From Candidatus Woesearchaeota archaeon (GTDB lineage: Archaea > Nanobdellota > Nanobdellia > Pacearchaeales > GW2011-AR1), in assembly GCA_964354195.1 (NCBI GenBank), contig CAYGYN010000076.1:1-42114 (forward strand): DNA of 42,114 bases, in the 5' to 3' direction. Under the pieces are notes generated by a model, which did not search any database, had not been told where the DNA came from, and worked only from the letters and a program-made list of their open reading frames with translations. Positions 33,272 through 36,034 of this stretch are shown here, piece after piece. Made by a program: the position numbers and the translations under genes. Position 1 is the first letter of the stretch. Every line of letters begins with the position of its first letter.

Positions 33272-33655
33272 TTATCCGCCTAGAAAGTCTGTTCTCTTTT
33301 CCTTTGCTGGAGCTGCAGGCGCCTTGTGGATGTCTGCAAACTGAGGGGTTGCGATTATTACGCTCTCTCCAAAACCGGCAATCTTGCCTTCAATTGCATC
33401 GATTGTCTTTTTTATCTTTGCCACTGCTCTCTTGAACTCAATTATGTCCTTGCTCTTTAAAGGCTTGGTGTCAATGACTGCAATTGTATATCCTTCCCTC
33501 AAAGCATTAAGAATTGGGTTGATATCGTCGAACTCGCGAAGCATAAAAGGCTTCACAATTACCTTATTATCGTTTGCCTGTGCAGCGTTAAGGTCGATTT
33601 CAACATATTCATCAGACTCATCTTTGCCAAACAACTTTTTTAAGCTAAACGCCAT
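33272..33655 (-). CDS. sepF: cell division protein SepF (archaeal FtsZ anchor)
   Basis: N-terminal amphipathic MAFSLKKLFGK, then YVEIDL...VKPFMLREFDDINPILNALREGYTIAVIDTKPL...GKIAGFGESVIIATP. This matches the DUF552/SepF core. Confidence 0.7.
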   Translation of the reverse strand: MAFSLKKLFGKDESDEYVEIDLNAAQANDNKVIVKPFMLREFDDINPILNALREGYTIAVIDTKPLKSKDIIEFKRAVAKIKKTIDAIEGKIAGFGESVIIATPQFADIHKAPAAPAKEKRTDFLGG

Positions 33656-34524: not shown

Positions 34525-34598
34525 TGGGGATGCCCGGATTTGAACCGGGGTTGCGAAGTCCCAAACCTCGAGTGTTAACCAGGCTGCACTACATCCCC
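34525..34598 (-). tRNA. tRNA-Pro (anticodon UGG), no intron, CCA not encoded
   Basis: The minus-strand sequence GGGGATGTAGTGCAGCCTGGTTAACACTCGAGGTTTGGGACTTCGCAACCCCGGTTCAAATCCGGGCATCCCCA folds by hand into a cloverleaf. It has a 7-bp acceptor stem, a 5-bp anticodon stem with loop UUUGGGA, and a CCCGG/CCGGG T-stem with a TTCAAAT loop. Confidence 0.88.
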
Positions 34599-34642: not shown

Positions 34643-35401
34643 TTACTTCTTTGCTGGCTTTTTCTCTTCAGGTTTTGCCCCTGCTCCAGCTCCGCTGGCA
34701 ACTTGGGCTCCTGCTGCTGGCGCTCCTGCTGGCGCTCCGGCTACTGGTGCTGCTCCAGGCGCTGCTCCTGCTGCTGGTGCCCCGGCTGCTGCGGCTGCTG
34801 CTGCCTTAGCTGCTTCCTCTGCTGCTTTTGCTTCCTCAAGAGCTTTCTTCTCTTTCTCTTGGCGGGCCTTTACAATCGCGAAATGCTCTTCCAGTTTCTT
34901 TTTCTTCTCTTCAGATGCTTCTGTAATCTCATTCTTTATTTCATTATCATAAACTCCTGCGTCTATTTCTTTCTCAACTTCCTTTGCTTCCTTGTTGTCC
35001 ACTAAAACGCCTAAAGAAACACAACTTCCAATAATTAGCTTGACTGCTTTTTTCATATCCTTTGCAAGAAGATTTGGCATCTTTGTTTTTGCAATTGAGA
35101 TTATGCGCTCAAGGGAAATGTTTCCTACCTTGAATTTCTTTGGCTCTCCCGAGCCTTTTTCTGCAGAAATTTCTTTTTTTATTAACTCGGCTACGGGAGG
35201 CGAGAAAACTTTCACCTTGAATGTTTTTGATTTTGGGTCAACATCAAGCTCAACAGGAACTTTCATTCCTGCAAAGCCTTTTGTTGCTTCATTAACATCA
35301 GAGATTACTTTGCCCATATTTATTCCAAGAGGACCGAGCTGCTGTGCTACTGCTGGGCCTGGCGCCATTTTCCCACCATCAACAATTAATTTAACTTGCA
35401 T
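34643..35401 (-). CDS. rpl11: ribosomal protein uL11 with a ~95-aa C-terminal extension
   Basis: The first ~155 aa (MQVKLIVDGGKMAPGPAVAQQLGPLGINMGKV...GSCVSLGVLVDNKEAKEVEKEIDAGVYD) are canonical archaeal L11. They are followed by an E/K-rich segment and an A/P/G low-complexity tail ending in KPEEKKPAKK. Confidence 0.85.
   Translation of the reverse strand: MQVKLIVDGGKMAPGPAVAQQLGPLGINMGKVISDVNEATKGFAGMKVPVELDVDPKSKTFKVKVFSPPVAELIKKEISAEKGSGEPKKFKVGNISLERIISIAKTKMPNLLAKDMKKAVKLIIGSCVSLGVLVDNKEAKEVEKEIDAGVYDNEIKNEITEASEEKKKKLEEHFAIVKARQEKEKKALEEAKAAEEAAKAAAAAAAGAPAAGAAPGAAPVAGAPAGAPAAGAQVASGAGAGAKPEEKKPAKK
34676..34831 (-). repeat. GC-rich low-complexity (GCN/CCN) tract encoding the Ala/Pro/Gly tail of uL11
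   Basis: Degenerate repeats of gctgctcctgctgctgg-type units on the plus strand stand out from the AT-rich background. Confidence 0.7.
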
Positions 35402-35403
35402 TT

Positions 35404-35898
35404 TTATTCTCCTGCTTTCTTCGCGCCTTCTTCAGACTCGGGTTCAGCTTCTCCTCCTTCTTTTTCACGCCTTATAACCTTTATGTTGTCCATCTTTATT
35501 GTGACTGGAATAGGGACTGATGCTCCAAGAAGAGAAACTACGACTTCCCCCTTTGTCTTGTCTACACGAGTTACTTTTGCTTTCTCTCCCTTGAATGTTG
35601 AGCCAATCATTTCCACTATGTCTCCAACTTGTATGTTAATATCCTCAACTTTTGGCTCAAGCATGTTTTTAATTTCTTCGTAGGTAAGTGTCTTGCCAAT
35701 TATTCCTTTTATATAAGGGAGATTGAAAACAGCTTCTTCAGCGCTCTCCCTATCGGCTGCTTCAAGAATTATGTAGCCTCTTAAGCCATGCGGACGTATG
35801 ACTGAAAAAACACTGAGCTGTTTCTTCTCAGAACGGTCTGCAACCATTTCGAGAGCGCGCTCTTCCTTATTTGTCGTTACTTTTATTATAAATATCAT
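35404..35898 (-). CDS. spt5: transcription elongation factor Spt5 (archaeal NusG)
   Basis: NGN domain MIFIIKVTTNKEERAL...GYIILEA and KOW motif GDIVEMIGSTFKGEKAKVTRVD, immediately upstream of rpl11. The acidic C-terminal tail is slightly unusual. Confidence 0.8.
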   Translation of the reverse strand: MIFIIKVTTNKEERALEMVADRSEKKQLSVFSVIRPHGLRGYIILEAADRESAEEAVFNLPYIKGIIGKTLTYEEIKNMLEPKVEDINIQVGDIVEMIGSTFKGEKAKVTRVDKTKGEVVVSLLGASVPIPVTIKMDNIKVIRREKEGGEAEPESEEGAKKAGE

Positions 35899-36034
35899 TT
35901 TTATTGAATCTCCTGCTCGCAAACCCACTCGAGATATTTACTGATTATTTCACTCGTGAATTTGCTCGTTACTCCCTCACGTCTGAAAACTGAAGAAGTA
36001 GTTAATAATATAGTAAATTGATGGTTTAAAAATC

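Follow-up and report, generated by a model that had tools for sequence, protein, structure and literature searches.

Architecture of the uL11 locus

The window analysed here is a stretch of 42,114 nucleotides from a Candidatus Woesearchaeota archaeon (contig CAYGYN010000076.1, assembly GCA_964354195.1). On its minus strand, an open frame of 252 codons at 34643-35401, uninterrupted by any stop, encodes the ribosomal protein uL11. The features of this gene and its immediate neighbours are as follows.

34525-34598, (-): tRNA-Pro(UGG), 44 nt downstream of uL11, given as context
34643-35401, (-): uL11 (rpl11) coding sequence, 252 aa plus stop; Pfam PF03946 and PF00298, NF002232
34646-34675, (-): residues 243-252 (extension part 3), KPEEKKPAKK as a Lys-rich tip; tail composition pooled from relatives
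34676-34783, (-): residues 207-242 (extension part 2), low-complexity linker of Ala/Pro/Gly with predicted disorder (pLDDT <50)
34784-34927, (-): extension part 1, residues 159-206, conserved start and long predicted helix, from AF2, alignment and dN/dS
34928-34999, (-): archaeal/eukaryotic-type C-terminal helices, residues 135-158, up to the end of M. jannaschii L11; AF2 helices 139-147 and 152-156
35000-35203, (-): uL11 C-terminal rRNA-binding domain, residues 67-134 (PF00298, E 4.3e-21)
35222-35395, (-): uL11 N-terminal, factor-facing domain, residues 3-60 (PF03946, E 6.7e-19)
35404-35928, (-): Spt5/NusG (Spt5-NGN, KOW), directly upstream of uL11 and tightly packed with it

Both canonical domains of uL11 are recognized above their cut-offs: Ribosomal_L11_N (PF03946) scores 67.8 bits against a cut-off of 32.9 over residues 3-60, and Ribosomal_L11 (PF00298) scores 75.6 bits against a cut-off of 21.4 over residues 67-134. 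In addition, the NCBIfam archaeal L11 equivalog NF002232 spans residues 3-158 with 189.1 bits (cut-off 162), positions 6-161 of its 164 being matched. The product is a bona fide archaeal uL11 encoded by the genome's one uL11 gene, the single match in the source genome, a MAG that is 83% complete. In the PDB comparison, the last residue of M. jannaschii L11 (5col_A, 161 aa) aligns to residue 158, and archaeal uL11 chains with solved structures measure 161-164 aa. Canonical uL11 thus stops at residue 158, and the following 94 residues (159-252, 34646-34927) are extra.

The slot downstream of uL11, which in many archaea holds L1-aP0-aP1, is taken here by the tRNA gene and, further downstream, by eL43, RpoP and prefoldin. 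On the upstream side, Spt5 carries a tail of ~20 residues past its KOW domain that is rich in acidic residues. Elsewhere in the window, a SepF homologue (33272-33655, (-)) has a short C-terminal stretch of Ala, Pro and Lys followed by DFLGG.

The extension is predicted to consist of a helix, a disordered linker and a charged tip. The AF2 model, built from an 83-sequence alignment, contains a single unbroken helix of 42 residues (164-205), rich in Glu, Lys and Ala and ~6 nm long if straight, along which the pLDDT drops from ~80 to ~60; from residue 207 on, disorder is predicted with pLDDT below 50. In the alignment, T160, S163, K166, L170, K178 and Q181 make the opening of the extension nearly invariant, and L170, F174 and V177 lie on one helix face as a hydrophobic stripe of the first turns. 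The last five turns bear a nearly invariant all-Ala stripe formed by A187, A191, A194, A198 and A201 (A191 is invariant); these positions are heptad-like, and Glu and Lys occupy the opposite face. Because close helix packing needs just such a stripe of small residues, we infer that it has a partner, and the single-chain AF2 model offers none within the chain. The Ala/Pro/Gly tract itself covers residues 200-242 (34676-34804), or 36-43 residues depending on where its boundary is drawn.

Coding status and conservation of the arm

The tract coincides with a sharp change in base composition, with GC of 0.62-0.71 across 34650-34850 compared with ~0.38 in the surroundings and 0.40 genome-wide. In its codons, GC reaches 0.95 at positions 1-2 and is 0.26 at the third position, with GCA, GGA and CCA preferred; since the excess is confined to positions 1-2, the GC-richness is imposed by the amino acids. 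A foreign origin of this GC island was rejected on the same figure, a GC3 of only 0.26. TRF found a degenerate periodicity of 3, 12, 24 or 27 nt only. Among the 2799 ORFs of at least 60 aa in the genome, one has a 30-residue window that is at least 90% Ala, Pro or Gly, and the runner-up reaches 70%, so that a genome-wide habit of Ala/Pro tails was likewise rejected. These results agree with the earlier note, which from the window's sequence had described a uL11 with a C-terminal extension of ~95 aa, laid out as a charged helix, an Ala/Pro/Gly tract and a KPEEKKPAKK end, the tract being encoded by degenerate repeats whose GC content contrasts with the AT-rich genome.

The best 120 relatives in a collection of 5.8 billion proteins are all 213-274 aa long. 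In an alignment of 119 relatives, the mean top-residue frequency of segment 181-206 is 0.87, compared with 0.83-0.84 in the two core domains. By comparison, linker length ranges between 16 and 65 residues, with a pooled composition of 58% Ala, 13% Pro, 10% Gly and 8% Thr. The pooled tip is 47% Lys, 19% Ala, 19% Glu and 8% Pro, and a KK end is found in 116 of the 119 relatives, whereas 3.3% of ORFs of at least 150 aa in the source genome end in this way. In comparisons with relatives at 69-83% identity, residues 159-206 and the core have similar dN; dN/dS (ω) lies at ~0.04-0.3 where it can be computed, with dS >1 and synonymous sites saturated. Low ω with saturated synonymous sites indicates that it is the protein, not the DNA, that is constrained, and the arm is therefore coding, with purifying selection acting on its amino-acid sequence. 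For three flagged relatives (G357, G216 and G376), an internal stop or a read-through junction was considered and rejected: there is no stop at the core/extension junction of any of them, and one proved to be an ordinary short form and the other two variants that are intact.

Distribution and variants across the class

A related-locus search, which returned close relatives only and thus covered the range within the phylum, yielded 80 loci that encode a close uL11 relative, from named MAGs of Pacearchaeota, Woesearchaeota and Nanoarchaeota; all 52 extension sequences that could be extracted complete from them carry the tail in the same layout. When 400 high-quality genomes of the phylum were sampled, the 150 best uL11 matches were almost all open frames of 212-335 aa. 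The tallies of this survey and of the gene-order survey below include six unpublished genomes (G243, G244, G322, G333, G360 and G396), on which none of the individual statements made here depends. The arm is common to hundreds of species of Pacearchaeota/Woesearchaeota type. In a family-spread sample of 140 genomes, uL11 length is bimodal: ~63 of 137 matches are extended, and the remaining proteins measure 145-190 aa and fill whole families (e.g. f86, f19, f53, f92, f103, f121 and f122). We read 23 borderline cases directly; four frames of ~201 aa in f86 are canonical uL11 with upstream read-in (G248 was checked).

The other borderline cases are genuine variants. Helix-only variants occur in G449, G438 and G216, acidic tails in G183 and G461, and Glu/Lys-rich tails in some families of the class, while uL11 of G440 has an Ala/Pro/Gly/Lys tract. 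In the Woesearchaeal-type G376 (L187:822-1067), a small helical 'knob' of ~35 residues separates the long helix from the Lys tip, in the place of the Ala/Pro/Gly tract of the source genome; a Pfam search with this form gave no match, only sub-threshold coiled-coil noise. With the opening motif T-E-x-[ST]-x-E common to most variants, the arm looks old within the class, and repeatedly remodelled and lost.

A profile built from the extension alone matched 28 of 1.84 billion representative proteins, all of them uL11 or uL11 fragments, and the nearest clusters in the ESM Atlas are Nanobdellota uL11 fragments. As judged from sequence, the arm is a module exclusive to uL11. Three entries (P0122, P0126 and P0127) join a uL11 fragment with its tail to unrelated sequence and probably arose on short contigs through frameshifts or chimeric gene calling. 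The suspicion that the extension is clade-specific and variable in length is borne out by its presence in relatives with linkers of different lengths. By comparison, the proviso that extended uL11 proteins might already be common and characterised in archaea holds in its first part, as they are common in uncultured DPANN archaea, and not in its second, since full-text searches of the literature found no description of extended uL11 in DPANN archaea.

Gene order and rRNA context

The usual gene row is secE-spt5-L11-L1-L10-L12. In the source genome, the Spt5-uL11 pair (Spt5 at 35404-35928, (-)) stands apart from SecE-L1-aP0-aP1 (L003 2569-2757, (-)), as if excised from this row. Across the genomes sampled, long uL11 is adjacent to L1-aP0-aP1 in ~1 of 35 cases, whereas short uL11 keeps the canonical order in 6 of 9. 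Where long uL11 is detached, a gap of typically 6-10 kb separates it from L1-aP0-aP1, in divergent orientation; G250 has kept both arm and linkage. The sampled genomes are kin, so the break in linkage may reflect one ancestral event. The pattern is compatible with an origin of the arm at a rearrangement breakpoint.

No 23S rRNA was found in the source MAG. In three long-uL11 (Pacearchaeal) relatives, H43/H44 and the sarcin-ricin loop are canonical, and where their 23S is deleted in comparison with two short-uL11 genomes, the deletions fall outside H43, H44 and the sarcin-ricin loop. A role of the arm in compensating for rRNA loss at the GTPase-associated centre was therefore rejected, no local loss being seen in this comparison of only five rRNAs.

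Two GC-rich rRNAs from genomes with short uL11 (L180 of G059 and L181 of G370) have GAAA in the sarcin-ricin loop where the universal tetraloop is GAGA (E. coli G2661 position); their H43/H44 sequence is also non-canonical. In G241, the 23S gene (L184) spans 3487 nt compared with ~2830-2850 nt in two family members, which suggests an insertion or intron of ~640 nt.

Stalk proteins of the source genome and of the class

The earlier note had proposed a search for the stalk genes aP0 and aP1, and both are present in the source genome. They lie with L1 on contig C54, with a SecE-like gene ahead of them.

L003 (contig C54) 988-1839, (-): aP0, 283 aa
L003 (contig C54) 686-964, (-): aP1, 92 aa

aP1 is normal and ends in GLASLFG. 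By comparison, aP0 is reduced: its matches to aP0 models of 336-339 positions run out at ~252-258, that to the P. horikoshii construct 3A1Y (284 residues) runs out at residue 251, and its two predicted spine helices are followed by a Pro-rich stub of 17 residues that contains neither a hinge nor a GLxxLFG end. In other archaea, three aP1 dimers sit on three aP0 helices (PMC7768734). The stalk of the source organism is, to judge from its genes, reduced at aP0.

This state of aP0 is widespread. The terminal peptide is absent from aP0 in 27 of 30 family members and kept in three (L010, L016 and L018), all belonging to the long-uL11 family. In the aP0 proteins sampled across the class, the factor-binding tail is absent from nearly all and three helices are kept in most. 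Long Glu/Lys-rich tails take the place of the factor-binding end in G200 (397 aa), G226 (400 aa) and G356 (369 aa).

The length of uL11 does not follow the state of aP0. Short canonical uL11 occurs together with aP0 lacking hinge and peptide in G374, G059, G370, G413, G331 and G277, and long uL11 occurs with such an aP0 in G047, G002, G019, G093 and G207. Since hinge- and peptide-less aP0 is found on both sides, aP0 reduction and the uL11 tail do not co-vary. Furthermore, the same five long-uL11 genomes and others have a three-helix aP0, and long uL11 coexists with two-helix aP0 too. Relocation of a third aP1 dimer from aP0 to uL11 was rejected on these combinations, namely long uL11 with three-helix aP0 and short uL11 with tail-less aP0.

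A probable tethered arm at the base of the P-stalk

uL11 binds helices 43 and 44 of 23S rRNA at the base of the P-stalk, and uL11 and the P-stalk together form the landing site of every translational GTPase. On balance, we consider it probable that the extension is a lineage-specific C-terminal tethered arm at the stalk base and part of the mature ribosomal protein. Because uL11 is seated on helices 43/44 at this point, helix 164-205 would serve as a fixed strut whose Ala face docks on a ribosomal neighbour. The linker and basic tip would then act as a tether, making electrostatic contacts with rRNA, tRNA, mRNA or acidic surfaces of the stalk or of factors. Via such contacts, the arm may tune the traffic of GTPase factors at the GTPase-associated centre, and it would not recruit factors in the manner of aP1. 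Against this reading, both the partner for docking and whatever the tip binds are conjecture, and the tail chemistry, which varies across families (G183, G461, G449 and G216), weakens the case for one fixed electrostatic ligand. In addition, the arm is absent from about half of the family-balanced sample of the class and is therefore dispensable for a working archaeal ribosome.

This absence from many lineages would also suit a largely neutral appendage, created by an ancestral stop loss or rearrangement, in which only a stable, soluble helix is maintained while the low-complexity string drifts by replication slippage. The free variation of the linker in length and composition, together with the degenerate periodicity of its DNA, points the same way, and the detachment of long uL11 from L1-aP0-aP1 fits an origin at a breakpoint. 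However, drift does not readily account for a helix as conserved as the core, for a KK end retained in 97% of relatives, or for an arm that persists in genomes of 0.5-1 Mb under strong reduction. We regard a neutral appendage as unlikely.

A more specific functional model would start from the tail-less aP0 and make the arm a novel functional part of the archaeal GTPase-associated centre. The Ala-striped helix would dock on the spine of aP0 or on an aP1 dimer, while aEF1A-tRNA, aEF2 or aIF5B would be captured or positioned with the help of the Lys tip, and recruitment would in part have moved from uL10 to uL11. We hold such a re-wiring of the stalk to be rather improbable.

The earlier note had also likened the tract to the flexible hinge of aP1 and had suggested that it compensates for a reduced stalk. 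In its fullest form, this would make the tail a degenerate P-stalk arm that descends from the hinge of aP0 or aP1 and replaces the lost aP0 tail and third spine helix. The tail does leave uL11 at the stalk base, the order of its composition, an Ala/Pro tract with a Lys/Glu patch behind it, is paralleled by the aP1 hinge of the source genome, and aP0 of this organism is indeed reduced to two spine helices with neither hinge nor GLxxLFG end. By the yardstick of an Ala/Pro-rich flexible hinge as found in P-stalk proteins, the tail is alike in composition and predicted disorder only, which is not evidence of descent. The profile comparisons argue against such descent, which we reject: hhalign gives the extension profile a probability of 0.5% against aP1 and 1.5% against aP0, leaving the arm with no detectable homology to stalk proteins, and Pfam, NCBIfam and PDB sequence searches with the extension alone returned nothing meaningful. 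As the note had itself recognized, the tail contains neither the P1 dimerisation domain, PF00428 (Ribosomal_60s) matching neither the whole uL11 nor its tail, nor the factor-binding end, GLxxLFG being absent from the tails of all 119 relatives. The likeness to the hinge thus stands for composition and falls for homology. Compensation fares similarly: aP0 is reduced, but the co-variation with the uL11 tail fails, and three members of the long-uL11 family retain the aP0 peptide. Mimicry of or compensation for the stalk appears quite improbable to us.

A role away from the ribosome would direct the arm to assembly, hibernation, ribosome pairing, tethering of ribosomes to another structure, or regulation by free uL11. 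The all-Ala stripe would suit tight helix-helix pairing, even between two copies of the protein, and Ala/Pro linkers with charged tips are typical of tethers. However, no partner gene is linked, the neighbours (Spt5 on one side; tRNA-Pro, eL43, RpoP and prefoldin on the other) being ordinary, and we give this idea very little credence. Lastly, an assembly error or frameshift, with the real uL11 ending near residue 160, can be dismissed in practice, as can a non-coding tail. The unusual base composition and nothing else speaks for such an artefact, whereas the same open frame recurs across many studies, in >200 independent assemblies, and the extension is conserved at the protein level with low dN/dS.

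At the GTPase landing site, much of the most abundant DPANN lineages thus has a 94-residue arm conserved to the level of the core. The translation apparatus of these lineages therefore departs from that of textbook archaea at a point central to its function. The arm and an aP0 without its factor-binding tail, found in the same clade, make a concrete target for structures of DPANN ribosomes. If the arm should be inert, it would still be a clean case of extremely reduced genomes keeping a large appendage. The test of stalk co-variation, the exclusivity of the module, the selection figures and the variant map are new here.

Comparison with known systems

The nearest functional precedent is eukaryotic uL11's N-terminal MPPKFDP motif, which contacts the P-complex (the extended domain of uL10) and raises translation activity (PMC9122527). 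Both are lineage-specific flexible appendages of uL11. The motif is distinct in that it comprises seven residues at the opposite terminus, bears no sequence relation to the arm and has a function tested by assay, whereas the DPANN arm is known from sequence.

The hinges of aP1 and aP0, and of eukaryotic P1, P2 and P0, likewise place a flexible Ala/Pro tract before a Lys/Glu patch in the same corner of the ribosome. The uL11 arm differs from them in having no dimerisation domain, no GLxxLFG and no profile similarity, and its tip is basic rather than acidic and hydrophobic.

Physical analogues by composition and predicted behaviour, with a stiff charged helix leading into a semi-flexible Ala/Pro string, include the Ala/Pro-rich hinge of bacterial bL12, the lipoyl-domain linkers of 2-oxo-acid dehydrogenase E2, and monomeric (EAAAK)n or single-alpha-helix segments of Glu, Lys and Ala. 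These generic analogues are not relatives, and the near-invariance of residues 181-206 exceeds what a mere spacer needs. A catalogued L11 with extra C-terminal sequence is NF011111 (PRK14539, '50S ribosomal protein L11/unknown domain fusion protein'). The source uL11 is not a member of this family, as it scores 68.2 bits against a cut-off of 310 over residues 4-180, which is essentially the L11 core.

Canonical archaeal uL11 (4V6U of P. furiosus; 5COL and 5D8H of M. jannaschii; 1S72 of H. marismortui) resembles residues 1-158 from end to end, with E values of 4.5e-46 to 1e-32. Both domains and the C-terminal helices are shared, and the source protein is 94 residues longer than these solved proteins of 161-164 aa. 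All the matched uL11 chains with solved structures end with the core C-terminal domain or a little beyond it, at lengths of ~134-147 aa in bacteria and 161-166 aa in archaea and the eukaryotic cytosol, those of organelles being longer (175-224 aa).
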